Source: Mobula hypostoma (taxonomy: Eukaryota). Taken from it: 64,000 nt of DNA. The notes beneath the pieces were generated by a model that was not told the DNA's origin, made no database searches, and worked only from the letters and a program-made list of their open reading frames with translations. Below, in pieces: positions 1 through 60,339 of the stretch. The position numbers and the translations under genes were made by a program. Where the stretch lies: positions 116,376,001 to 116,440,000 of the forward strand of contig NC_086097.1 in assembly GCF_963921235.1 (NCBI RefSeq), given 5' to 3'. The number at the start of each line of letters is the position of its first letter. Within the stretch, counting starts at the first letter, position 1.

Positions 1-639
1 AGAAGCATTCAGGTCTGGCAACCAAGTGAAATGCAAGAGATCTAGGTATGAACACCAGAAAGCCATTTCATGTGCAAAGTGGCAATTCCAGACCACACAT
101 GAATCACTCAAGGATGGCTGCCCGCTGTGAGAGGGCGAGAATGTTATCACCTCCCACAAAGTGAAACCAAGCAACACAGATAACAACAAGGCTTTCGCAC
201 CCGGATGAGCTCAATTCATTTTATGCTCACTTTGGCCATCAAAAGTCGGAGGCACCTTCACAAACTCCCACAGCCCCCAATAATCCTGTAATTTCAGTCT
301 CTGAGACTGACGTGGGAGCATCCCACAGTGGGGAGAACCCATGGAAAGCATCCAATCCAGACAGGGCACTTGTCCGGGTATTAAAGACCTGTGCTGATCA
401 ATTAGCTGGAGTGTTCACCGATATTTTTAACCTCCCGCTTCAGCAGTTTGAGGTACCCACCTGCTTCAAGCAGACTTCAATTATGCCAGTACCTAAGAAG
501 AACGTGGTAATCTGCCTCAATGACGATCATCCAACCGCTCTGCGATGAAGTGATTTTTCAGCCTAGTGATGAAACATATGAACTCCTCCCTGAGAAGCGA
601 CTTGAATCCGCTGCAATTTGCCTACCATCACAACAGGTC

Positions 640-2350
640 AAGTTCAAGTTCAAAGTTAATTGTCTTCCAACCATACATGAATACCCATGAATACAGCCAA
701 ACGAAACAGCGTTAATCTGGGGCAAAGGTGCAAAAACACAGTACCAATAGTCATGCACAGCAGAAAGCATATATAGCACATATAAATGTAGCCAGGTGAC
801 TGTTGAATATTATTTATTGTTAAAAATTCACTTATATATTCACCCTGGTAATGCTAAAATAGCTGCCTGTACCTTTAAGAGGAAACAGTGAGGTCATTAT
901 GCATGTGTAGAGTAGAAAATAAGAGAGACAATGTTCTAGAAAGCATATGGAGTGCTGAGAGCTGCTTTTCCCAGGTGTGCTGATTGTATGGTCAGTAAAG
1001 GTGAATAATATTCAATAATATTCATGTAGATTCGATTATACTTGCATGTAAACCAAGAATATTGATAATTTGACATGTGGATGATCTAGGTTTTCACGAG
1101 CAAGGTGTTGGCGTTGGATAGCGTGGTTGTGCGCGTTCCTAATCAGCCTAGTTGGTTAGTCTTTCTAGTAATTTGACTACAAGGCAATATATTGTAAAAG
1201 TTTTATGAAGGTTTATTTTTGTCTTACTTTATTGTTTCATGACTGAATGTGAGTGTAACGGAGTAATGTGAATGTGTTAATCTCTGTTCACATAATGTGA
1301 GCGAGGAATACTCATCTCAGGGTCTAGTCTATACGAGTTTGGAAGTTAAGCACGTGTGTGCCGACATGAGTATATCTCTTAGTAAAGATGAGATGTTTTT
1401 ATTCATATTTGGGATGTTGTGTACAAGGTACAGGTTTGGGGGATTCTAATGTTGTTTGTATTGTTCTATTTGGAATTGTCACTACTGTATTGGTTTAGTA
1501 TATTTTGCTTTATTTATTTTCATACTGCATATGTAACTAGTTGATACACAAGTGCGTGGGCCAAATTTAAGCTGAGATTGTAACAGCAGGAACTGCTTTT
1601 GTTTAACTCATTTTGTTGTTTTTATTTTGATGCCCTCTTTCTGCATTAAAACATCTAAAAACAGATAAAGGAATTAAAGACCCAAAAAAGCATTTGTTGC
1701 CCTGAGTGTTTTTTTTTTCCCCCGGGCTACAAAGTGAGACATCAAGCACATATAAAACAGGACTAAAATACAGTCACACAAAAAATAGTCCAATTACAAG
1801 TCCATGAATGTTGCAGCAGTCTGCAGTTGAACACAATACAGCTTGTCTTCTGCCAAGCGACCACTGGGGGCAGCAATGACTCCAGTATGGACGCCATAAT
1901 ACACCGCATCCAGCACTCCAGTGGAGCACCTAACTTCAAAGTCTCCTCCGGGTGGCTGCAAACAGGCGCCACCATGGCTTGACGCCTAGTTCTCGAGACA
2001 TCCAAGGTCATGCAGCTTCCCCGGGCACTCACCAATAAACCAATGAATTGGACTTGCAGCATTCTGCACCACTAATGCCTTGCATTCACAAGTAAAGCAA
2101 CTAAGATAATCAGTCACCATTAGACTGCACACTGTATTTGTGCATCAACAGCTCTCTGATGTAGGCAACAGCATGATCCAGTTCATTCAGGTTCTTCGCC
2201 AATGCGCTACTCGCTGATGGGGTTAACCTGCAGTACTTAATGACAAGCAAGGTTGTGCAGTTGTAAAAACATATGGTAGAAACGACAATAACACCTTTGA
2301 TTGATCCTGTAGGAGTCAGTGAAATTTAACACACCCCCATCTTATCAGAA
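640..2350 (-). mobile_element. Non-autonomous LINE-tailed element (family A), itself split by a solo LTR at 787-1731
   Basis: 640-786 plus 1732-2350 is colinear with 26461-27237; (TTGAAC)n-like tail at the left end and CTTCTGATAAGATGG 5' end at the right end on the minus strand. Confidence 0.7.
787..1731. mobile_element. Probable solo LTR (TG...CA)
   Basis: Starts TGTAGCCAGG and ends CCGGGCTACA (9/10 inverted match); interrupts family A; ATTAAA near the right end; no clean TSD. Confidence 0.6.
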
Positions 2351-3039
2351 GTCAAGAGGAGATTCCATTTCATTGGCTCTTCACTCAACCCTGGAACATC
2401 TGCACAGTGAAGGTGCAAACATCAGGAAACTCTTCATTGACTACAGCTTGGCATTGAATACTATCATCCCCTCAAAACTAATCAATAAGCTTCAAGACCT
2501 CCTTGAGCAACTGGATCCTCAATTTCCTCACTTGAAGATCCCAGTCAGTTCAGATTGGCAACAACATCTCCTCCACGATCTCCATCAGCACAGGTGCAAG
2601 GCTGTTGCTTACCCCACTGCTCTGCTCACTTTACACATGACTGTGTGGCTAAACCCAGCTCCAATGCCATATTTAAGTTTGCTGAGGAAACCCACTGGCA
2701 GTGGCCGAATCAAATGTGGTGAGGTATCAGTATGTAAGAGGGAAACTGAAAATCTAGCTGAGTGGTGTCACAACAACCACCTCTCATTCAATGTCAGCAA
2801 GACCAAGGAGCTGATTATTGACTTCAGGAGGGGAAAACCGGAGGTCCATGAACCAGTCCTCATCAGGGGATCAGAGGTGGAGAGGGTCAGCAACTTTAAA
2901 TTCCTCACTGTTATCATTTCAGAGGACCTGTTCCAGCAAGTAAGTGCCATTTTGAAGAAAGCACAGCAGTGCCTCTACATTCTTAGAAGTTTGCGAATAT
3001 TCAGCATGTCATCTAAATCTTTTGACAAACTTCTGTTGA

Positions 3040-3146
3040 CCAACACACACAAAATGCTGGAGGAACAGCAAGCTGAGCAGCATCCATGGAAAAAAGTGCA
3101 ATCAACGTTTTGGATTTCCGGCATCTGCAGATCTTCTCTTGTTTGT
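3040..3146. mobile_element. Short 5'-inverted Penelope-like (PLE) terminal fragment with 14-bp TSD
   Basis: TSD CAAACTTCTGTTGA at 3026-3039 and 3147-3160; the left part is the inverted pLTR end and the right part is the forward PLE tail (GGATTTCCGGCATCTGCAGA...TGTTTG). Confidence 0.8.
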
Positions 3147-3569
3147 CAAACTTCTGTTGATGTGTGCTGGAAAGTATACCTCTGGTTGCATCGTGACCTG
3201 GTATGGAAACACCATTGCCCTTGAATGGAAAATCCTACAAAAAGTAGTGGATACAGCCCAGTACATCAAGGGTAGAGCACATCTATATGAAGTGCTGTTG
3301 CAGGAAAGCAGCATTCATCATCACGGGCCCTCAAGATCCAGGCCATGCTCTCTCCTCACAGCTGCCATCAGGAAGAATGTACAGGAGACTCAGGATCTAC
3401 ACTACCAGGTTCAGGAACAGTTATTACCCCTCAACAATCAGGCTCTTGAACTAGACAGGATAATTTCACTCAATTTCACTTGCCCCATCGCTGAACAGTT
3501 CCCATAAACTATGGACTCACTTTCAAGGACTGTACTTTCAAGGACTCTTCATCACATGTTCTCCATAGT

Positions 3570-3885
3570 AATTAGTTGACCATCAATGTTGCATTCTAAC
3601 TGGCTAGATATGCAAGCCTGGAAAGTACAATATGGAGAGCAAGATGTTGCCCACGTAGCAAGCTCCCCCTCTTCATGCATCTGATGAAGCCAAAGGAATG
3701 GCAAAGACCGACACAGTTTGGCACCAGCAGCAGTTTTCAGTCAGTGTTGAACCCAGGCTAGGACAGCTTTAGGGACTCCAGCTCTGGAGTTTTCCCTTGT
3801 GATTTACCCCCAAAGACTTCCCCATGAGTTGGTTTAGCCACAAGTTAGCAGAGGTTTGAGATCAGAGTTTTCCTTCTCCTAGATT
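3570..3885 (-). mobile_element. RTE-derived non-autonomous repeat fragment
   Basis: Reverse-complement similarity to 58500-58738 plus 60116-60190; RTE assignment is from resemblance to RTE 5' UTRs. Confidence 0.45.
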
Positions 3886-3904
3886 AGCTGAGTTGTATAT
3901 CGAA

Positions 3905-5064
3905 CTGGGGAAGAAATGTGATCTAAGTGACTTTAACCATGAAATGATTGTTGATGGCAGATGGAATGGTTTTAGTATTTCAAGGCTGATTTCTACTTGT
4001 GTGTTAAATGTACACCGTAGGTACAGCGTAGCCGCGAACTCTACGCTGTATCTATGCTGAACCCTACGCCGTAGCCTAATGCCCACCTCTCCCAAAATGT
4101 AGCTACGCATTGCGGCATCGCAGACCGCGACAACTGTGATCGGTCCGCTTGGTAGCATCACATTTCCTCCTACACTGCAATAGCTTCTCATTGGGCGACT
4201 GAAGGGCAGGGAAGGAACTCTGGCTGCAATGCTTTCCATAAAGCTTTACAGACCTCCGAAATTATGGAGGACCCTGTGCTTGATGCCAGTTTGTAGCTAG
4301 CTGCTACAGCCTGTTGACTTCCACCAACTCGAATGGTGATTGCCAGTCTCTGAGTATACTGTGCGTACACTGATGCAAAATAAATGGTTGGAGACGATGA
4401 CCCAAATCGTCAAATCTACCTGCCAACATCCGAAAATATTTGAAATACATTTCCTTGTCCATATCTCTCAGTCGCCGGACAAGCACAGAAAATTCACCCT
4501 CCTTCAGTTTCAGTCGCCATTGTTTGAAGTTTGAGTTTCTTTGTGTTGAGTTTCAACATGAAGAAACTCAACACAGTGGCATAGAAACCCCACCGCCAAC
4601 TAGCGTTTTGGCGGTGAATTGCAGAGCGACGCAGACACACCAACACACAAGTATAAATGCTCACAATGGCGTAGCCCACTTGCGAAGGCTACGGTGTAAG
4701 CTAGTACGCCCAAGTATAAATCAGCCTTCAGAAACAGCTCATCTACTGTGATTGTCATGCAAAGCAGTCTCTAGAGTTTACAGAGAATGGTACAAAAAGT
4801 AAAAACAGTGAGCAGCAGTTTGGTGGGTGAGAAATTGGGTTGCTAATGAGAGAGGATGGGAGAAAAGCCAGATTAGTGGAAATTGACAGAAACTAACTGA
4901 AATAACCACATATTACAATAATGGTGTGCAGATGAACATCTCTGAAAGCACAACATGTTGAACCTTGAAGTGGATGGGTACAGCAGCAGAAGACCATGAA
5001 CATCCACTTAGTGATCATTTTATTAGGTACAGGAGGTACTAAACAAATTGGCCACTAAGTGTAT
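3905..5064 (+). mobile_element. Tc1-like non-autonomous transposon remnant (host of the Harbinger insertion)
   Basis: GAAATGTGATCTAAGTGACTT...GCAGCAGAAGACCA shared with 13944-14365 and 41705-42120; ends in TIR GGCCACTAAGTG followed by TA. Confidence 0.75.
3983..4727 (-). mobile_element. Internally deleted PIF/Harbinger DNA transposon
   Basis: 17-bp TIRs AGGCTGATTT(C/A)TACTTG; 3-bp TSD TCA (3980-3982 and 4728-4730); minus-strand peptides [24 protein letters not shown] and [22 protein letters not shown] resemble the Harbinger transposase N-terminus; CpG-rich. Confidence 0.88.
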
Positions 5065-5854: not shown

Positions 5855-6095
5855 GATATAGCCTAGCGGTTAGTGTAACATTATTAGTTTTCTTGACACA
5901 GGTTCAATCCCTACCGCTGTCTGTACGTTCACACCGTTATTGCATGGATTTCCTCCAGGTGTTCCGGTTTCCTCCCAGATGCCAAAGACGTGCGGGTTGG
6001 TAGGTTAACTGAACACACAGTGTTAATGGATGTCACGGGCTCATTGGCTCAGAAGGGCCTGTTAGTTGCTGCATCTCTAAATAAATAAACAAACA
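5855..6095 (+). mobile_element. tRNA-derived SINE (HE1/V-SINE type)
   Basis: A/B-box-like head (TAGCGGTTAG..GGTTCAATCCC), central GGATTTCCTCCAGGTGTTCCGGTTTCCTCCCA domain, A-rich tail. Confidence 0.75.
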
Positions 6096-6499
6096 AAAAA
6101 ACAAAAGGTAGCTCAGGTTCCATCGTGGGTCATGGTGTTACGTTGAACCTTGACAAAATACTGGTTAGGCCAAAAATGGAACCCTCTGCCAAATTCTGGT
6201 CCCCGCTCTGTCACCAGATTTGAAGGCCAAGGCAAGAGTGCAGAAAAGACTGACTAGTGTGTTTGTAGGGATGAATGCAACGCTGTTTACTATTGTAAAG
6301 AGTTACTAAGATAGCTTTCATTAGGGGAGAGAGGGCTGAGAGAAGATGTAGAAAAGAAATGTCCAAGACAGAATAGATGGAGAGAAGGTGTGCCTGTTGG
6401 TGAGGGGATTGTAAATGAGATTATTACAGAAGAAACAGACAAAAAAATGGAAATCACAGTGAATAAGTGATTTCCTATGGTTAATTCAGATGCTTTACA

Positions 6500-6750
6500 G
6501 GTAGACCATAAGACCGTAAGACATAGGAGCGGAATTAGGCCATCTGCCCATTGAGTCTGCTCCGCCATTCAATCATGGCTGATCTTTCTTTCTATCTCCT
6601 CCTCAACCCCAGTTCCCAGCCTTCTCCCCGTAACCTTTCATGTAATGCAAACAAGAACATATCAATCTCTGCCTTAGATACACCCAACGACTTGGCCTCC
6701 ACAGCTGCATGTGGCACAAATTCCACAAGTTCACCACCCTTTGGCTAAAG
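6500..6750 (-). mobile_element. CR1 LINE 3' end fragment
   Basis: FSQRVVNLWN motif and (CTTATGGT)-type tail. Confidence 0.75.
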
Positions 6751-6769
6751 GGTAGTTTGTCTTGACGTA

Positions 6770-7095
6770 ACCACATAGATCCCACAGCCAAAAAAGCTCT
6801 TCTTCCCCAGGAGTCTACAGAAATTTATAGGTCTCCTTTGGCCCTTATTGTTTTTTATTGACACACCAGAGAAACTGTCCTACCTGGAGGCATCATGGTT
6901 TGGTATGGCAACTGCTCTGCCCATGAACACAAGTAACTGCAGAGAATTGTGGACACAGCTCAGCATATCACAGAAACGAGTCTCCCCTCCATAAACTGTC
7001 TCTAATTTTTGCTGCCTAGGTGAAGCAGCCAGCATAAAAAAAGAACTCACCCATCCCAGATATTCTCTCTTCTACCTCCTCCCATTGGGCACAAA
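6770..7095 (+). mobile_element. Rex1/Babar 3' fragment
   Basis: TGGTATGGCAACTGCTCTGCC...CTGCAGAGAATTGTGGACACAGCTCAGC motif. Confidence 0.65.
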
Positions 7096-7219
7096 TAATG
7101 GGTGTGTGGAGATGAAAGTACTTGTTAGGCATCTCACCTTCTTGTCCTGTACCTAATTTTAAGGTTAAATCTGGTTTCTACAAATATACAGGTACATTAC
7201 AGGCTGGTCAATGAAGTTA

Positions 7220-8025
7220 TAGTTTACGTCCTATATTTTGAGTCAGTCTTCACTATGGAAGACACTGGCAGCATTTTTAGAAAAATGGGGCAGAAATGAA
7301 TTTAATTGCTATAAGAAAGGAGAAGATGCTTTGGAAGGTGAAAGGTCTCAAGGTGGATAAGTCACCTGGACCAGATGGACTACGTCCCAAGTTTCTGCTA
7401 GAGGTAGCTGAAGAGATTGTGGAGTCATTACTAATAATCTTCCAAGAATCATTAGATTCTTGAACGGTTCCAATAGGATAGAAAATTGCAAATGTCACTC
7501 CACCCTTTAAGAACAGAGAGGGGCAAAAGACAGGAAATTATATGTCAGTTAACCCCTGACCTTGGTGGTTAACAAGATGTTAGCGTCCACTATTAAGGAT
7601 GATGTTTTAAGGTATTTGATGGCACATGATAAAATAGGCAAAAGTCAGCATGGTTTCCTTGAGGGGAAATCTTGCCTGACAAATCTGTAAGAATTTTTGA
7701 GGAAATAATAGACAAGATAGACAAATGAGAGTAAGTGGATGCCATTTACCTGGATTTTCAGAAGGTCCTTACAAAGAGCCACATGAGGTTGATAAACAAG
7801 AGCCCATGGCATTAAAGGAAAAGTACCAGCATGGACAGAAGATTGCCTGATTGGCAGAAGACAAAGAAAGGGAATAAACAAGCCTTTTATGGCTGGCTGC
7901 CGGAGACTAGTGATGTTCTGCAGGGGTCGGTATTGGATTCACTACTTTTCATGTTATATATTAATGATTTGGGTGATGGAATTAATGGCTTTGTGGTCAA
8001 GTTTGCAGATGATACAAAGTTGGGT
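7220..8025 (+). mobile_element. Degraded CR1 RT fragment
   Basis: KVDKSPGPDG, QHGF, YLDFQK and QGSVL...YINDL...KFADDTKLG motifs. Confidence 0.85.
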
Positions 8026-8631
8026 GATTGATTATTGACTGCAAGTCCACCTTCAATACTATAATTCCAAGCAAACTCATCTCCAAACTCCTAGACCTAG
8101 GGCTCGACACCCCTGTTTGCAACTGGATCCTTGATGTCCTGACCAACAAACCATAGTAAGTAAGGATAGGCAGCAACATCTCCACCACAATTATTGTCAT
8201 CACTGCTACTCCATGAGGCTACATCCTCAACTTCTTATTCTACTCTCTATGTACTCAGGATAGTGGGCCAAATTGTGCTCTGACTACATAAACAAGTTTG
8301 CAGATGACACCACGGTAGTGGGCAAATCTCAGATAACAATGAGTTGCAGTCCTGCAAGGAAAGTTGAGTGAAATAGCATCATGGCAACAACCTTTTCCTC
8401 AATTTCAACAAAACATAAAAGCTGGTCATTGACTTCAGGAAGGGGTGAGGTAGTGCGCATGGTCCTGCTTACATCAACAGAGATGAGGTAGAGTGGGTTG
8501 AGAGCTTCAAGTTCCCAGTTCCCAGAACATCACCAATGGCCTGTCCTGCTCCAATCACATTGATACCACAGCCAAGCAAACTCACCAGTAACTCAACTTC
8601 CTCTGATGGCTGAAGTAATTAAGTATGTTCC

Positions 8632-8720
8632 TGTCATGGTCCCTTCTGGCAATCCCCCACCTTGCCATTTGCCTCAAGATTTGGGCCTCGATCACCTCAT
8701 TTAGATTCCAATCATTCCCA
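8632..8720 (+). repeat. Truncated 5' LTR of the Gypsy element
   Basis: 89 bp matching 11651-11739 with about 3 mismatches, then fused directly to the protease region. Confidence 0.9.
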
Positions 8721-9342
8721 CCCCCCTGGAGGCCTGGGCTTTGGACGGAAAGCTGCTGGCTCGGATGACCCACCGTACGCCGCCCCTGACCTTGATCCAA
8801 TCCAGCAACCATCGGGAGGAGGTAAGATTCAACCTCATTCATTCACCTCAAGCCCCGATAGTTGTAGGGTATCCATGGCTGACCCAACACAATCCCCATA
8901 TCGACTGGTCTATTGGGAGGACAGCAAGATGGAGTTGATCTTGCCATGCCAACTATCTGCGGTCGGCCCCATCCCCCAGAGAGGCTACTGCGACCCTGCC
9001 TGTGTTGGAACCCCTCGACTTGTCCCACATCCCCACAGAGTACCATGACCTGGGACAGGTGTTCAGTAAACAACGGGCCCTTTCCCTGCCTCCGTACCGC
9101 CCATATGATTGTGCTATCGACCTTCTCCCCGGGACCCCGCTACCCACCAGTCGCCTTTTTAACCTATCCTGACTGGAGAGGGAGGCAATGGAGAAATACA
9201 TTAGCGAGTCACTCCTGGCGGGCATTATCAGGTCTTCATCCTCCCCGGTTTCTTTTTCGTAAAAAAGGACGGGACGCTTCACCCTTGTATCGACTACCAA
9301 GGCTTAAATAACATAACAGTTAAGAACGAGTACCCTCTACCA

Positions 9343-9374
9343 CTGAGGAAGGGTCTCGGCCTGAAACGTCGACT
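9343..9374 (+). ncRNA. Minimal type I hammerhead ribozyme motif, 5' strand of stem I missing
   Basis: CTGAGGA-AGG/CCT-GAAAC-GTC-GACT; the upstream AGTC is replaced by Gypsy sequence. Confidence 0.55.
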
Positions 9375-10032
9375 GCACCTCTTCCTAGAGATGCTGCCTG
9401 GCCTGCTGCGTTCACCAGCAACTTTTATGTGTGTTACCCTCTACCACTCATTAGTTCGGCTTTTGAGCCACTGCATGAAGCCACTATCTTTTCGAAGTTG
9501 GACCTTCGCTACGCCTACCATTTAGTCAGGATAAGAGAGGGGAACGAATGGAAGACGGCCTTCAATACACCTCAGGGTCACTTTAAATACTTGGTCATGG
9601 CGTTTGGCCTCACTAATGCTCCCGCCATTTTCCAAACCCTGATCAATGATGTACTGAGGGACTTTATCTAGTCCTGACGAAGGGTCTTGGCCTGAAACGT
9701 CGACTGCACCTCTTCCTAGAGATGCTGCCTGGCCTGCTGCGTTCACCAGCAACTTTTATGTGTGTTACCCTCTACCACTCATTAGTTCGGCTTTTGAGCC
9801 ACTGCATGAAGCCACTATCTTTTCGAAGTTGGACCTTCGCTACGCCTACCATTTAGTCAGGATAAGAGAGGGGAACGAATGGAAGACGGCCTTCAATACA
9901 CCTCAGGGTCACTTTAAATACTTGGTCATGGCGTTTGGCCTCACTAATGCTCCCGCCATTTTCCAAACCCTGATCAATGATGTACTGAGGGACTTTATAT
10001 AGTCCTGACGAAGGGTCTTGGCCTGAAACGTC
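9371..10032 (+). repeat. Tandem duplication of 2 x 331 bp (PLE pLTR end plus Gypsy RT segment)
   Basis: 9371-9701 versus 9702-10032 differ at one position by my reading (9668 C / 9999 A); identical 80-aa ORFs at 9429 and 9760. Confidence 0.95.
9670..9705 (+). ncRNA. Minimal type I hammerhead ribozyme motif (PLE-type)
   Basis: AGTC-CTGACGA-AGG(GTCTTGG)CCT-GAAA-CGTC^GACT: stem I AGTC/GACT, palindromic ACGT stem III, predicted GUC cleavage after 9701. Confidence 0.8.
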
Positions 10033-10036
10033 GACT
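10001..10036 (+). ncRNA. Minimal type I hammerhead ribozyme motif (PLE-type)
   Basis: Same motif as 9670-9705, predicted cleavage after 10032; followed by the full PLE tail to ~10133. Confidence 0.8.
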
Positions 10037-10463
10037 GCACCTCTTCCTAGAGATGCTGCCTGGCCTGCTGCGTTCACCAGCAACTTTGATGTGTGTTGCT
10101 TGAATTTCCAGCATCTGCAGAATTCCTGTTGTTCGTATTTGTTTACCTTGACGACGTCCTAATATTTTCTAGCAGACCCCAAGTACACGTCCGTCAGGTC
10201 CTCCAGAGACTACGGGAAAACCAATTATTTGCTAAGGCGGAGAAATGCGAATTCCAAGTTCCTTCGGTCAGCTTCCTAGGCTATATCATTGAAAGCGGGC
10301 AGGTAAAAGCAGACCCCGACAAGATCCGGGCAGTGGAAGAATGGCCTCGACCCACGACACGTAAACAACTTCAACGGTTCCTGGGGATGTTAAACTTCTA
10401 TCGTAGATTCTTCAGAGAGGTCTCTAAAGTAAAGGAAGCCCAGCGGGTTGACCGACCCGGACA

Positions 10464-11525
10464 ATGGACCCGGCGATCGCCTGTACGTGCCCACCTCCGT
10501 CAGGTCCCAGGTTCTCCAATGGAGACACATCCCGGTTCGCCTGCCAACCCAAAAGTGATCGGACCCTGGCTCTCCTGAGGAAGCACTTTTGGTGGCCGTC
10601 CATGGAGGGACACACCCGTTTTATGTCTCAGCTTGATCCATCTGCCCGGGGAAAGGTCTCTCATGGACCACCTGCGGGACTACTTCGTCCTCTACCTGTC
10701 CCTGGTCGTCCCTGTTCACACATCGCCTTAGACTTCGTCACCGGTCTATCCCCTTCCCGCGGAGACCGATTATCTAAGGCGGTGCACTTTGTGGCCCTCC
10801 CTAAACCTCCTTCCTCTCAGGAAACCACAGATCTTCTCGTCCACCACGTCGTCCGCCTCCACGGAATCCCCGCGGACATCGTCTCCGATCGAGGTCCCCA
10901 GTTTGTCTCGCAAGTATGGAAGGCCTTCTGCCAAGCCTTGGGCGCATCGGTCAGCCTGTCTTCCGGCTTCCACCCCCAGACGAACGGGCAGACGGAACGG
11001 GCAAACCAAGACCTGGAGGCGACGCTTCGTTGTGTAACGGCAAACAACCCATCGACCTGGAGCGACCACCTCCCGTGGGTTGAGTACGCCCATAACTCTC
11101 TGGTGAGCTCTGCCATTGGGAGGTCTCCGTTCGAGTGCTCCGTTGGGTATCAACCCTCGCTGTTTCCCGCGCAAGAAGAGATTGCAGTACCGTCGGTTCA
11201 GGACCATATTAATCGGTGCCTTAAGATTTGGGAGGAGACGCGCACGGCCCTACTGAAATCAAATCGAAATAAGAAGACAGCCGACCGACACCGCATCCCG
11301 GCGCGGGAGTACCAACCTGGACAGATGGTGTGGCTGGCCTCCAAGGACATCCGGCTCAAGAACAAACATAGAAAACTCTCCCCTCGCTTCCTGGGACCAC
11401 TCAAGGTGGAAAGGGTAATCAATCCCACAGTGGTCTGCCTGAAGCTGCCTAGATCCATGCGCATCCACCCAACCTTTCATGTGTCTCAGTTAAAACCAGT
11501 TTCTGGTAGACTGAGAAGGGTATGA
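10464..11525 (+). pseudogene. Gypsy integrase (rve) remnant ORF
   Basis: 353-aa ORF with the DDE core motifs; small internal deletions. Confidence 0.9.
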
Positions 11526-11650
11526 TCGAGAAGAGCGTTCCTGGGTCCCCCACTCCTTCATCCTGGATCCTTCCCTCATCCAGGATTTTCATCGGGACCA
11601 TCCAGACAGGCCAGGAGGATCGCCTGGAGACTCCCATTGAGGGGAGGTAC

Positions 11651-11998
11651 TGTCATGGTCCCTTCTGGCAATCCCCCACCTTGCCATTTGCCTCAAGATT
11701 TGGGCCTTGATCACCTCACTTAGATTCCAACCATTCCCAGGTACCACTAACTACACGCACCTGCTTCCCATCAAACAGCAGGATTAAAAACCCTTTGACC
11801 ACAGCAAGAAGCTGCCAGTTCATTGGTCAACACTTGTGAGAGTAAACCTTGTTTCCTATTCCTGAGGACTGTTAGTTCTAAGCTTTGCATTGTCTCCTGG
11901 ATATCGGCTCCCTGTTCGCAGTGGTGCTACGCCTAACGACTCTGCCTCAGCATCTGTGTCCTGCACTTGGGTTTGTCCCCAGCCACATCCTTGCAACA
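11651..11998 (+). repeat. 3' LTR (348 bp) of the Gypsy element
   Basis: TGTCA...CAACA termini, preceded by the PPT. Confidence 0.88.
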
Positions 11999-12688
11999 GT
12001 TTGTTTTGTCCCTTACCAGTCTTTTATCAATACACAATAGAATGCATCCTGTCTGGAGGGGTCACAGCTTGGCATTGCAACTGCTCTGCCTGTGACTACA
12101 AGAAACCAGAGTTGTGGGCACAGCTCAGCACATCATGGAAATCAGTGCCACCTCCATAAATGCTATCTACATTTCTCATAGCCTCAGTAAAACAGCCAGC
12201 ATTATCAAATTTTCTCCAGATGCTGGGCCTCCTCACGCCTCTCCCCTCCCCTTGGGCAGAAAGTACACAGGCTCAAAGACAGCTTCTATTGTGCTGTTGT
12301 AAAACTATTAAATTATTCCCTAGGATGATAATGTGGGTATTTAATCTAACAATCTACCTTGCATCTTACTGTCTACCTTCACTGCACTTTCTCTGTAACT
12401 GTAACACTTTAAACTCTGTTGCTGTTTCAGTTTGTACAACCTCAATGCATTGTTGCAACAAATTGGTCTGTATAAGCATTATCCCTGACAGTTGTTCACT
12501 GTACTTATGACCATAGTATACCAGTTTACCAGCTCATACGATGAAAAACTTATCTGCACATTTAAGATAAAGTAGAAAACTATGGTTATATTGGAGTTTT
12601 TCAAGGCCTTTGGGATTTGAAAATGTAGAAAGGATTATTGTAAATTCAGGCCTACATATAAGAAAGAGATTTATTGGATTCAAACTGT

Positions 12689-36652: not shown

Positions 36653-39600
36653 TATTATGTTGGTGTTAACGCCAGAAACTAACTGAAAGAAAAAACACAG
36701 GAACTGGGATTTGTCTACTTAATTTTTCTTTTCCTTTATTTTATTTAGGCACTCACGCACGACATGGTGGCATAATGACTTTTGCCATTCACGTACTTTT
36801 ACATAATGAATTATGTAAACAAACAAGGAATGCTTAATCAAACAATATATTTACAATATTACTCAAATATTACTGACATATTAAATACACAACACTCTTT
36901 TCTCCTTAACAATAAACTCCAGCACAATATAGAGTGTGTCACAACTGAAATATGTAGTGTATTACTCTCCAGTCATTTTATATATACCATATAAATCAAC
37001 AGCTACACAGACGTTCACAGCAGAATAAATTTTAAATTGTCCCATTCAGGCCAAAAGATTTCATTGCTGTGGAGGGTTTCTTACCTTTGTGGTTTTCATC
37101 TTTCCTGACAAAGGGGATCACTCTGTTTGGTGGGTGAGGCTTGCAGCTGTGAATCAATCTAACAATCTCAAGTTCTGGGGCCTCTTCCATGTTGGTGGTA
37201 GGAGCAATCAAGCCTACAGTATATTTGATTACCCGTATCTGTAGTCCCTCTCCAGCACTGCTGATCCAGGAGTGAAATATCAAACTGCCTTTGTTTCAGC
37301 TGTTTGTCCTGCATTCTCCTTCTGAGATTGTGCTGGAGGTGATCCAAGTGTAATTGCAAGGGACGACCCAGGTACAGCTTTGCTGCTGAGTTTTCGGTTG
37401 TGAAGTGTGCTGCGTTGTGATATGCAAAGAGGAAATTGGCATTCTTCTGATTCAGTGCAGTGTGTTCTACTGACATTATTCACAGTGTCTTCTTTAGACG
37501 CTGGACAAATCTTTCTGCCGAGTCATTTACAGCTGGCTGGTCTTGTGCAGATGGAATATGTCCCATTGCATTCATTTTCAGGAATGACTGAAACCGTTCT
37601 GCAACAAACGGTGGTTCATTGTCACTGACTAAGTGCTCTGGAACACCAGTCCTTGAGGAGAGGTTTCTCAACACATCAAGTGAACCTGTAGTGAAAGCTA
37701 TTGTGAAAATTTGCAGCTGCATCCACTACTACCAGGAAATCTGTGCCTATGAATGGTCCGATAAAATCAACATTAATACTCTGCCAGGGCAATGCAGGCT
37801 ATTCCTAGGGATGGGGAGGCACTGCTCTTGGCATCTTCTGGACACGTTGGCATCCCGGACAGTGCATGGCAAGCTGCTCGATCTGCTGATCTATCCCAGG
37901 TCACTAGACAAAGCTTCAAGTCAATGCTTTCATTTTGACCATATCTTGATAGTTGGCATGTAGTTCCTCCAACACATTTGCACTCAGCTTGGATAGTGCA
38001 ATAACTCTCAATCCCCACATATGGCAACCCCTATCAAGGCCAAGGTCATCTTGGCACTTAATAAAATGGAGGAGCTGGAGTACCTGTTGCACACTTCAGC
38101 CATTTAGAATCAGTGTTGGGCCCTTTCTGTTTTCCATTTGGATCATCACTGCTGTAACAGGGAGACATTTGAATTGAATTAGGGAGAATACAAGAGGGCT
38201 GACCTCTTTTGTAAATTTTTCAGGTATTTCCTTTTCCAAGGGTAAATGGGACAACCCCTCAGCACTTCCACGACTATTTGTCCTCTCGAATTTGATCTTG
38301 TGATTGTGTCCTCCAAGAAACTATACCCACCTCTGCATTTGGGATGCTGCTGTTAGTGGAACACTATTCTGTGGATTGAAAATGGACACCAGTGGTGATG
38401 ATGTGTAGTGGGGGGAAACTCTCTCCCATCCAAATATTGGTTGAAATGTTTTACATCCCAAACCATAATCAGGACCTCTCTGCCTATCTCTATGTAATTT
38501 TACTCTACAGCGGTAAGGGAACATGATACAAAGGCTATACCATAGGCAAGACATCACAGGCAAGCTTCACTGAATGACATGGACCATAATGCATGAGTAC
38601 AGTGTGAGTAATGTGTCTGCTGGCCCTCCTGTTTCCTTAACCACATACAAGCCTAATGTGGCTTGTTGGTTGTTGTATTTCACTGTTACAAATGTCATTC
38701 CCACGGAAATTATCTTTTCTCTGTTAGAAGTTCTTAGTTGGATATTTGCAGGTTTCAGCTCGGTGTCTTTGAAATACTGTTCAAACTCATTTCATGTAAT
38801 GACTGAAACAGCCGAGGCAGCATCCAATTCCATTTTAATTAATGTGCCATTCACTGCTGGTGTAAGCCCTATTGCCTGTCTCCTGTTAGTTTACACATTG
38901 TAAATATTAACACACTACTCTGTCCTGTGTCACTCTCATCATTATCAGTTTTTTTTTCATCAATAGCATGCAGATTAGTTCTCTTTTTCAATCTGCAGCT
39001 TGAGTGTTTATCTTTTTCTCTTCCTTATTCAGTCCATTTGTTTTTGTCTGCCTGACATGCTCTTTGTATGTATCCTATTTTGTGGCATTTTCTGCAAGTT
39101 TTGTTTATAAACCTACATTGGTCTGATGTATATGAACCACTTTCAGAACAGTTGCACAGTTTGCTCGGCTAGGCAAGTTTCTGTTTAGATATTGCAATTT
39201 TGGTCACATTCACTTTCATTCCTGACTGCAACTCAATTGTTTCTCTGGCTGCTGTTTCCATTGATACAGTGTTTTCAACTGCTCTTGTAATTGTGCATTG
39301 TGCTTCAGTTATGAATAACTTCTGAGTGTTTTCTTGGATGGTTCCACAAACTAAACAATCTTTCAGTTCATCATTAAACTTACCACTGAACTGACAATGC
39401 TCGGATAATTCGTTCAATACAGTTATGTAAGCAGAAATGGATTCCCCTTCCTTTTGATTCCATTTCTGAAGCCTGAAGCATTCTACAATCAACAATGTTC
39501 TTGGCTCTAAATGTTCCTGCATTGCATTCAAAATATCAACCAAGGTCATTTTGACTGGTTTGGTTGCAGCAGTTAAATTTCTAAACAAACTGTATGCTTT

Positions 39601-40150
39601 TCCACCCATTGCACTCAGTAATAGTGTTTTTCATCAGGTATTTAATTTGCTTCAAAATACTATGTTTGTTCAGTATACATCATCCAGATATCTGTTGTGC
39701 AATTGAATGTGTGCATCTTTCTGAAGTCGCCAGCTATTTTTGCTCCTTTTTATTATTGTTGTTATTATCATCTGGTACTCACCGTTTATGAATCTGTGGC
39801 CATACTCATTGTTTGTTAACTTAGTCCATTTTCTGCCTTTTTTAAAACTTAACATCTCTGTCCACATTCGAAGAAAAATGTGCTGTTCCTCAACAGGTAG
39901 GTAGCCATCTTGGGCTCATTTTAAAACTTTCTCATCACCACAGTTATGTTTTGCAACCCTTGAAACCAGTTGAAAGAAAAACACGGGAGCTGGGTTACTT
40001 TTCCTTTTTTGTTAGAGGTGCTCACATATGACATAGTGATATAATGATGAATGCCATTCACATACTTCTTACATATAACTCTTCATGAATTATATTAACA
40101 AACAACATATTTACAATATTACTCAAATATTAATAAAATATTAAATAGAC
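36653..40150 (-). mobile_element. Old degraded Ty3/Gypsy LTR element with both LTRs (~36653-36893 and ~39942-40150)
   Basis: Direct repeats at both ends; minus-strand PBS-like TGGTGATGAG and PPT TTAAGGAGAAAGAG; gag (AYSL.RNL..ERFR-like..QKEGESISAY..L..LSEHCQF) and integrase (LVSDN.P.F..E.FQSFL; AERFVQ.LK) remnants; RT not detected. Confidence 0.85.
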
Positions 40151-59130: not shown

Positions 59131-59610
59131 TTAGCGGAAGTTAGAGAAGTCGATGTTCATGCCATCAGGTTGGAGGCTACCCAGACGGAATATAAGGTGT
59201 TGTTCCTCCAACCTGAGTGTGGCTTCATCTTGACAGTAGAGGAGGCCGTGGATAGACATATCACAATGGAAATGGGACGTGGAATTAAAATGTGTGGCCA
59301 CTGGGAGATCCTGCTTTCTCTGGCGGACAGAGCGTAGATGTTCAGCAAAGCGGTCTCCCAGTCTGCGTCGGGTCTCGCCAATATATAAAAGGCCACATCG
59401 GGAGCACCGGATGCAGTATATCACCCCAGTCGACTCACAGGTGAAGTGTTGCCTCGCCTGGAAGGACTGTTTGGGGCCCTGAATGGTGGTAAGGGAGGAA
59501 GTGTAAGGGCATGTGTAGCACTTGTTCCGCTTACACGGATAAGTGCCAGGAGGGAGATCAATGGGGAGGGATGGGGGGGACGAATGGACAAGGGAGTTGT
59601 GTAGGGAGCG
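59131..59610 (-). pseudogene. PLE GIY-YIG endonuclease domain (5'-truncated, open frame)
   Basis: VIYCIRCSRCGLLYIGETRRRLGDRFAEH...HFN...RLEEQHLIFRLGSLQPDGMN. Confidence 0.92.
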
Positions 59611-59966
59611 ATATTCCGTCTGGATAGCCTCCAACCTGATGGCATGAACATCGACTTCTCTAACTTCCGCTAAGGCCCCACCTCCCCCTCGTACCCCATC
59701 TGTTACTTATTTTTATGCACACATTCTTTCTCTCACTCTCCTTTTTCTCCCTCTGTCCCTCTGAATATACCTCTTGCCCATCCTCTGGGTCACCCCCCCC
59801 CGTCTTTCTTCCCGGACCTCCTGTCCCATGATCCTCTCGTATCCCCTTTTGCCTATCACCTGTCCAGCTCTTGGCTCTATCCCTCCCCCTCCTGTCTTCT
59901 CCTATCATTTTGGATCTCCCCCTCCCCCTCCAACTTTCAAATCCCTTACTCACTCTTCCTTCAGTT

Positions 59967-60002
59967 AGTCCTGACGAAGGGTCTCGGCCTGAAACGTCGA
60001 CT
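59967..60002 (+). ncRNA. Minimal type I hammerhead ribozyme motif in the pLTR
   Basis: AGTC-CTGACGA-AGG(GTCTCGG)CCT-GAAACGTC^GACT. Confidence 0.8.
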
Positions 60003-60339
60003 GCACCTCTTCCTAGAGATGCTGCCTGGCCTGCTGCGTTCACCAGCAACTTTGATGTGTGTTGCTTGAATTTCCAGCATCTGCAGAATTCCTGTTGTTT
60101 GAGTTTACTCTTCATATTGTGCTGCCCTGGCTTGTGTATCATGTGGACAGCTGGGACACAATGTCCATGATCAATCCTGACTAACAGAGGGCTTCAAAAT
60201 TAATTTTTAACAAATAAGTTTAAAACCATATATTGAAATAGGCTCATTTCTGAAACATCATTCAACATAGACGATTGTGGTGTCATGCACGTACGTAGAT
60301 CCTATATGAGGTATCTGTCCAAAAATGCTTTGTCAGAAT

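Follow-up and report, generated by a model that had tools for sequence, protein, structure and literature searches.

A tandem array of three PLE pLTR ends, separated by sequence from a Gypsy retrotransposon and carrying hammerhead ribozyme motifs, was analyzed within a 64,000-nt window of the Mobula hypostoma genome, and it likely arose by ordinary unequal DNA recombination or slippage between two solo PLE insertions. The array requires no junction beyond those of two ordinary insertions and no new junction is present, and a hybrid middle copy in the absence of a new junction is the signature of unequal recombination. Read from its sequence, the Gypsy segment is target DNA that would have lain between two independent insertions, been duplicated in situ and never moved, and the tandem is probably inert, left by an in-place duplication.

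Anatomy of the array, its host element and its PLE family

The array is placed inside a broken Gypsy RT, where a 93-nt block occurs as three same-strand copies that start at positions 9343, 9674 and 10005 of the window, with spacings of 331 and 331 nt. TRF describes the same repeat (9343-10097, period 331, 2.3 copies, 99% matches), and the block positions and the TRF result both agree with the three pLTR ends 331 nt apart that had been proposed from a first reading of this DNA (the original prediction). The two units that run from predicted cut to predicted cut (9371-9701 and 9702-10032) differ, as that reading had stated, only at 9668 (C) and 9999 (A). Their two-part composition also stands, with the sizes corrected from about 96 nt of PLE and 235 nt of Gypsy RT to 98 and 233 nt, respectively, so that Gypsy RT makes up ~70% of the unit.

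The host element is read on the + strand. A 90-nt remnant of its 5′ LTR (8631..8720, 87/90 identical to 11650-11739) is fused directly to internal pol-side sequence, the remaining LTR and the upstream internal region being absent, and other Gypsy copies align from 8718 onward. Internal sequence with broken frames follows (8721..9344, +, 87-89% identical to other copies), and its translation ends in the last RT codons before the array, ...KNEYPLPL. The spacer of the array is recognized as Gypsy RT (Pfam RVT_1, E 2e-13 over 9438-9668); the first copy of this 233-nt segment (9436..9668, +) is 89-94% identical to 18 other Gypsy copies, and the second (9767..9999, +) has a final A in the place of the C found in the first copy and in 16 of the 18 other Gypsy copies. 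Since the difference between the units is a departure from this common C, either the duplication would be young or two alleles were joined. Downstream of the array, the remainder of pol (10134..11649, +) contains the end of RT, an integrase core and an SH3-like domain (Pfam RVT_1, rve and SH3_Tf2-1), with an internal deletion near 10420 visible as alignment gaps, and is followed by the 3′ LTR (11650..12000, +, right end approximate). A scan of the window for host genes returned weak Pfam matches in 3 of the 130 unmasked frames of at least 55 aa, all under the cut-offs; it covered 130 of 133 frames (3 inside the Gypsy element were omitted), a design in which short exons would escape detection. 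Among the side observations from the window is a 153-aa frame (39169-39630, -) that resembles a retrotransposon gag, with a weak PNMA match under the cut-off.

The repeated block is the pLTR end of an endonuclease-bearing PLE, as indicated by the RT C-terminal region and GIY-YIG motif that lie upstream of the pLTR end in longer copies of the family (Pfam GIY-YIG, E 2.4e-4, 21.8 bits, just below the cut-off of 22.6). A cysteine-rich linker in these longer copies points to what is presumably a Neptune-type PLE. The family was sampled in 100 stretches (995,912 bases), 20 at round-number places and 80 around exact motifs within the first 5 Mb of C1, a choice of sites that makes the sample enriched. 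Within it, the whole motif is kept in 93 of 148 young copies, and two classes of 3′ end are evident, with 77 of the 148 reaching position 125 or beyond and most others ending near 90-111. These two end types match the optional tail of 30-40 nt that has been described for an anole PLE, where it derives from two internal RT start sites (PMC11167929). A TSD of 12-18 bp flanks 36 of 38 inverted insertions, which combine a tailed and a tail-less end, and among the simple insertions one of at least 10 bp was found for 10 of the 29 that are tail-less and 13 of the 35 that are tailed, so that the family shows the optional tail, the inverted partner copies and the variable TSD that mark PLE pLTR ends.

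Several other members of the family are recorded here in their own right. A ~1-kb PLE copy elsewhere in the window (59131-60099) has a GIY-YIG frame on the - strand and a pLTR end on the + strand that is 99% identical to copy 3 of the array, and is an insertion of the inverted type from this family. The bare ribozyme-bearing pLTR end, 102-107 nt long, forms head-to-tail dimers at L147:1413-1646, L148:1335-1651 and L151:1272-1612, and these are the 3 pure pLTR dimers with both copies near whole among 9 matches; the copies in the L147 and L148 dimers are 99% identical, lie within one TSD of 12-13 bp and were probably made at insertion. At L091:4673-5213 a 143-nt mini-tandem, apparently of the PLE ORF start, alternates with pLTR pieces that share private changes, and resembles an internally deleted PLE tandem. 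At L080:4940-6168 two tail-less ends 1150 nt apart are identical over 79 nt and have differing flanks, which may reflect chance or local re-insertion.

The three copies in the array differ in anatomy. Copy 1 (9343..9435, +) has a tail-less end, starts inside the ribozyme core, and is flanked by a 14-bp TSD whose left copy (9331..9344, +) recurs at 9435-9448 and 9766-9779; its 5′ junction has a 2-nt CT overlap. Given the family TSDs of 12-18 bp, this length is typical, and the assignment of copy 1 as a normal solo insertion is well supported by its sequence. An independent solo insertion elsewhere in the genome (L035:1300-1610; G000:C12, ~39.84 Mb) consists of a 96-nt tail-less PLE end that interrupts the same YPLP codons of a 70%-identical Gypsy RT and is framed by a TSD of 14 bp, and so shows how copy 1 would appear as a lone insertion. 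As a separate matter, the use of the same codons at both sites hints at a target preference of the endonuclease. Copy 3 (10000..10133, +) ends in a 36-nt tail (10098-10133) and has no TSD, which is common among simple tailed insertions of the family (20 of 35), and 6-8 nt of target are missing at its site compared with other Gypsy copies; from these features we infer a separate tailed insertion.

Copy 2 (9669..9766, +) is a hybrid of the other two. At the three variable columns the alleles are G,C,T in copy 1, C,T,T in copy 2 and C,T,G in copy 3, and copy 2 matches copy 3 in its 5′ junction and at the first two columns (C,T), and copy 1 at the last column (T) and in its tail-less 3′ junction. 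Along copy 2 there is a single change from the alleles of copy 3 to those of copy 1, and each of its junctions also occurs at an outer copy. Among 124 sampled copies the allele set of copy 2 was found in 0, that of copy 3 in 5, and the set C,C,T, one change from copy 1, in 12; the absence of the copy 2 set is weak evidence alone, as fewer than one occurrence was expected.

Proposed recombination between two insertions and competing routes

Taken together with the anatomy of the copies, the allele pattern is consistent with three steps. In the first, a tail-less, 5′-truncated PLE cDNA would have inserted at the YPLP codons and left the 14-bp TSD, giving copy 1. In the second, a tailed PLE end would have inserted 233 nt downstream with a target deletion of 6-8 nt, giving copy 3. 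In the third, copy 3 would have mispaired with copy 1, on sister chromatids or homologues, over the stretch of 68 nt that is identical across the three copies (9689..9756 in copy 2, +, with variable columns 15 and 84 on its two sides), and either crossing-over or template switching within this putative interval would yield the order copy 1, Gypsy, hybrid, Gypsy, copy 3. The ribozyme would be unnecessary for making the array.

The tandem as such is no chance match of sequence, but close pairs of PLE ends are to be expected by chance in this genome, because the exact-pattern motif alone has 52,767 matches in 3.48 Gb (reversed control, 0). The number of same-strand pairs 150-500 nt apart expected by chance is ~140 for exact-motif copies and 260-4400 for all young ends, the latter estimate being built on 9 young ends in 200 kb. 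The motif was present in 0 of the 19 long-period TRF arrays in the 996 kb sampled, so no second cargo-bearing tandem was found there.

Neighbouring Alu or other short repeats are known to give rise to tandem duplications through non-allelic homologous recombination. The array resembles such repeat-mediated duplications in having a hybrid repeat where the two copies of the duplicated segment meet, with same-strand repeats bounding that segment, and it differs from them in that the repeats bear a ribozyme motif and the priming end of a PLE, so that the product mimics a retrozyme.

Part of the evidence on age comes from a DNA sequencing run that is labelled as another organism (X5), in which an exact 53-nt contig crosses the 3′ junction of copy 1 (junction A). 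The 29-nt Gypsy part of this contig is exact in only 1 of 18 Gypsy relatives, and its rarity together with the exact junction suggests that copy 1 is probably old, with the caveat, from the L035 insertion, that the site can be hit twice.

Among the alternatives, an assembly artefact is quite unlikely but has some points in its favour. Here the true locus would consist of copy 1, Gypsy and copy 3, heterozygous for C and A, and the assembler would have looped from copy 3 to copy 1 and created a false hybrid; a loop through the 68-nt identical stretch would give exactly the hybrid seen. Sequencing runs bear on this question through their contigs, whose depth is a poor measure of copy number. In run X2 the C and A versions of junction B are separate contigs of equal depth (12.3 and 11.9), which fits two alleles and also fits one unit per haplotype, and in runs X3 and X4, which have the same sample label, the depth of the spacer contig (7.2 and 11.4) is not doubled relative to other single contigs (6.4-11.1 and 8.9). 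Against an artefact, the depth of the spacer and junction A is roughly double that of single joints at other loci, both in X2 (22.6 and 25) and in X1 (33.1 and 33.5 vs 12-25.7 in 9 of 10 single-contig joints, which are taken to derive from other loci). In addition, the assembly has 200 contigs of up to 256 Mb, which suggests that it was built from long reads, and such reads would cover an 800-nt array from end to end. Run X1 has no contig cover at 10156-10243, and among the contigs shown for X3, X4 and X5 none crosses junction B (word share 0.49 vs 0.61-0.62), which could reflect an allele with copy 1 only, low depth or bubble removal.

It is improbable that a single complex PLE integration made the array. 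For this, the PLE RT would have been primed on a transcript of the locus, copied a pLTR end and the Gypsy sequence upstream of it, switched to a second PLE RNA, and inserted the product at the site of copy 1, leaving copy 1, Gypsy and copy 2 in one 14-bp TSD. The segment 9345-9765 is indeed also bounded by the 14-bp word, pLTR-driven capture has been published (PMC3846280), and the family offers a precedent. A PLE insertion inside one 14-bp TSD (L112/L156; L112:4462-5141; G000:C1, ~2.9608-2.9614 Mb) carries 300 nt of flank and a 96-nt PLE end copied from a source 2.8 Mb away (L157; G000:C1:170.4-170.8 kb; 386/392 identical), and a second PLE is attached to this copied block. At the source, the PLE end is flanked by a separate TSD and is without a hammerhead, so that flank transduction appears to need only the 3′ end of the pLTR. 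At the array, however, the target would have to be the source locus itself, the copied flank would have to end exactly at the nick, and copy 2 would have to gain independently the column 84 allele of copy 1, a T that is present in 18 of 143 sampled copies. The L035 insertion argues further against this route by showing that a solo insertion can have the full form of copy 1, and the X5 junction contig leans the same way by suggesting copy 1 alone, but covers one side only.

Predicted hammerheads and a possible ribozyme route

Rfam returned 0 matches in the window at the gathering score, so the hammerhead assignment is based on the published description of minimal hammerheads (min-HHRs; Cervera and De la Pena 2014, PMC4209133) rather than on an Rfam model. 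As the original prediction had it, CTGANGA, stem II and GAAACGTC^GACT can be read in every copy, and in RNA terms all three have the core CUGANGA/GAAA, stem II, the palindromic helix III positions and an NUH site; these core features and the GIY-YIG and RT context bear out the view of the repeats as PLE pLTR ends with minimal hammerheads of the palindromic-helix-III kind. Three hammerheads had been proposed, and this holds for copies 2 and 3, in which 5 of the 5 first positions of helix I pair, and fails for copy 1, which keeps the core, stem II and the cleavage strand and lacks the 5′ strand of stem I. Target DNA precedes its CUGA, and the first 3 positions of helix I are mismatched. By sequence, the minimal hammerhead is complete in copies 2 and 3 alone (9669-9706, + strand, predicted cut after 9701, and 10000-10037, + strand, predicted cut after 10032), each with a 5-bp helix I, an unpaired A ahead of a 4-bp stem II and an ACGU palindrome, and cleavage at the first predicted site (after 9370) would depend on the core of one of these two copies.

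These motifs share with the min-HHRs of PMC4209133 the CUGANGA core, an unpaired base before stem II, a helix I of 4-5 bp and the palindromic helix III positions. They differ in the closing pair of stem II, which is G.U here and in 78 of 97 sampled motifs vs the conserved G10.1-C11.1, and in that the tandem consists of solo ends spaced by foreign target DNA and not of PLE units. In metazoan pLTRs, min-HHRs have been reported as thousands of single motifs from truncated PLEs for which a dimeric action was proposed, and they cleave poorly as dimers or trimers (PMC4209133). In the anole PLE, hammerhead activity depends on the PLE protein and insertion does not require the ribozyme (PMC11167929), and 8 of 9 Xenopus dimers were without cleavage (10.64898/2026.07.22.740005).

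Copies 2 and 3 have the geometry of a nested double hammerhead, with predicted cuts at 9701 and 10032, and a + strand transcript across the locus could in principle fold in this way and release a 331-nt RNA that corresponds exactly to 9702..10032 (+), as had been predicted. The predicted active double-hammerhead fold lies 26.6 kcal/mol above the minimum, and cleavage of the first site by the core of another copy lies 18-19 kcal/mol above it, by nearest-neighbour energies in which tertiary contacts are not counted. Pairing probabilities of stem II are 0 to 0.09, and the motifs of copies 2 and 3, taken in isolation, have a folding energy of -11 kcal/mol in a structure that pairs core bases and differs from the active one. 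The 331-nt unit folds no better than its shuffles (z -0.25 linear, -0.39 circular). A disfavoured fold and a ribozyme type reported as weak or protein-dependent together predict a low yield. Regarding expression, no listed run that contains array sequence is recorded as RNA, and runs X17 and X18, which are RNA by guess only, have cover on the PLE parts and none on the Gypsy parts and are uninformative.

A role for the ribozyme in making the array has very little probability. In this scenario a transcript of copy 1, Gypsy and copy 3 would have been cleaved at the two GUC sites and closed into a circle, DNA reverse-transcribed from it would have recombined into the locus, and the array would now yield 331-nt circles as a nascent retrozyme. 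The sequence is the same whether it comes from recombination or from a ribozyme-cut circle that reinserts at this place: a circle cut at the first and third sites would have the hybrid junction of copy 2, and the predicted cut falls within the putative crossover interval, but that interval spans most of the shared homology. The nested geometry of copies 2 and 3 is also as this route would have it, as are the length of the unit and its 49% GC, which are within the range reported for animal retrozymes (170-400 nt, <50% GC; PMC7229834). Against it, the two-copy precursor had a single core with a stem I strand, that of copy 3, so copy 1 would have been unable to cleave the third site in cis. The predicted energies of the active folds exceed the minimum by 18-27 kcal/mol, with tertiary contacts left out of the calculation, the unit has no excess of structure over its shuffles, unlike the highly self-paired circles of retrozymes, and published minimal hammerheads of PLEs are weak, protein-dependent or inactive (PMC4209133, PMC11167929, 10.64898/2026.07.22.740005). 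In addition, no dispersed copy was found, and the 5′ LTR of the Gypsy element is reduced to 90 nt.

It is extremely unlikely that copy 3 was instead duplicated twice in tandem and the first unit then lost its Gypsy part by microhomology deletion to give copy 1, for which the 2-nt CT overlap would speak, as chance would then have to produce a 14-bp TSD together with the kind of tail-less end that is usual in the family, columns 15 and 84 would have to change to alleles that are common in it, and L035 has the same anatomy as a plain insertion.

Mobility of the unit and its relation to retrozymes

The repeated unit was not found elsewhere in the genome. Exact junction A occurs only at this locus (2 of 12 genome matches at no more than 1 mismatch; control, 9), as does exact junction B (2 of 30 genome matches; control, 12), and among the best 40 candidates of each DNA search no match outside the locus spans either junction. 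At 12 loci taken from near-junction matches (8 for junction A and 4 for junction B, with 2 and 24 others left out, respectively), only L035 has Gypsy sequence beside a PLE end, and since that Gypsy is only 70% identical it is not a daughter copy. The original prediction had seen here a retrozyme at birth, with Gypsy cargo captured into a mobile unit and junctions to be sought at other loci. Neither chimeric junction was found elsewhere, there is no dispersed copy and no TSD around the array, and a Gypsy segment that stayed in place speaks against captured, mobile cargo. A transcript could, in principle, carry the 331-nt unit away as L157 flank was carried, and the ribozyme would be unneeded for that; there is no sign that this occurred.

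The movement of host DNA by pLTRs has been reported for rotifer PLEs of Adineta vaga (Arkhipova et al. 2013, PMC3846280). The array is similar in having unrelated DNA between direct pLTRs, and the present family does likewise at L112/L156, whereas the block of pLTRs and cargo in A. vaga has moved, with its own TSD and an empty site, and the array stayed put. L112 is the one clear cargo case among 143 ends; a search of these ends for distant TSD partners gave 13 rows vs 7 control matches, mostly longer PLE copies. Separately, for one PLE end (L094, ~5985-9927) a candidate 14-bp TSD partner lies 3.9 kb upstream, on the far side of non-PLE DNA; this may be chance (control rate 7/143) or a larger transduction. 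The available text of PMC9977147 contains nothing on duplications made by PLEs.

With animal non-LTR retrozymes the array shares its derivation from a pLTR and a tandem layout on the scale of a few hundred bp, in which each unit has one type I motif (PMC7229834). Li, Clavereau and Pollet (2026) proposed the birth of retrozymes from PLE terminal sequence and their growth by unequal crossover, and reported families averaging 363 bp in one chondrichthyan (10.64898/2026.07.22.740005). By their rule the locus would be classed as an active retrozyme, with a TRF tandem, two consecutive complete motifs and a folding energy below -5 kcal/mol, as applied here with different TRF settings and without their rnabob descriptor. 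Compared with the retrozymes of PMC7229834, which form dispersed multi-copy families and are expressed as monomeric RNA in linear and circular form, the unit and its junctions are at one locus, in 2.3 units and known from DNA alone, and 70% of the unit is Gypsy RT. The ribozyme is of the minimal type with a 5-bp helix I, in contrast to the canonical type I ribozyme with a 6-bp helix I and contacts between loops 1 and 2 (PMC7229834), and the monomer is not highly self-paired. There is also no mark of insertion as a unit, as no TSD surrounds it; the 14-bp TSD is that of copy 1, and the side of copy 3 has a target deletion. The locus resembles a retrozyme, and its best placement is among tandem duplications mediated by repeats, here the PLE ends. 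A literature search, mostly outside subscription papers, found no report of a retrozyme-like unit formed by recombination between two solo PLE ends that enclose foreign DNA; the supplementary family tables of Li et al. may already list such units.

As an ordinary duplication the locus is unusually legible, since the genome retains the two parent copies, the hybrid between them and a natural control in solo form. It illustrates that the bioinformatic rule for active non-LTR retrozymes, a tandem with two motifs, can be satisfied by passive local duplication, and such duplications may help to explain why 8 of 9 predicted Xenopus dimers failed to cleave.

It is unlikely, but conceivable, that the locus exemplifies a route by which retrozymes are born with foreign cargo, in which PLE ends that are neighbours by chance recombine into tandems of the intervening DNA, a PLE protein chaperones the 331-nt RNA, and the unit leaves its birthplace and founds a family. 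The movement of flank from L157 to L156 by solo pLTR ends keeps this weak precursor reading alive. If it is true, there would be hundreds of such precursors in a genome with >50,000 intact ribozyme-bearing PLE ends, and if RNA release and mobility are true as well, the array would provide a concrete route from PLE ends to retrozymes with an unrelated body sequence.
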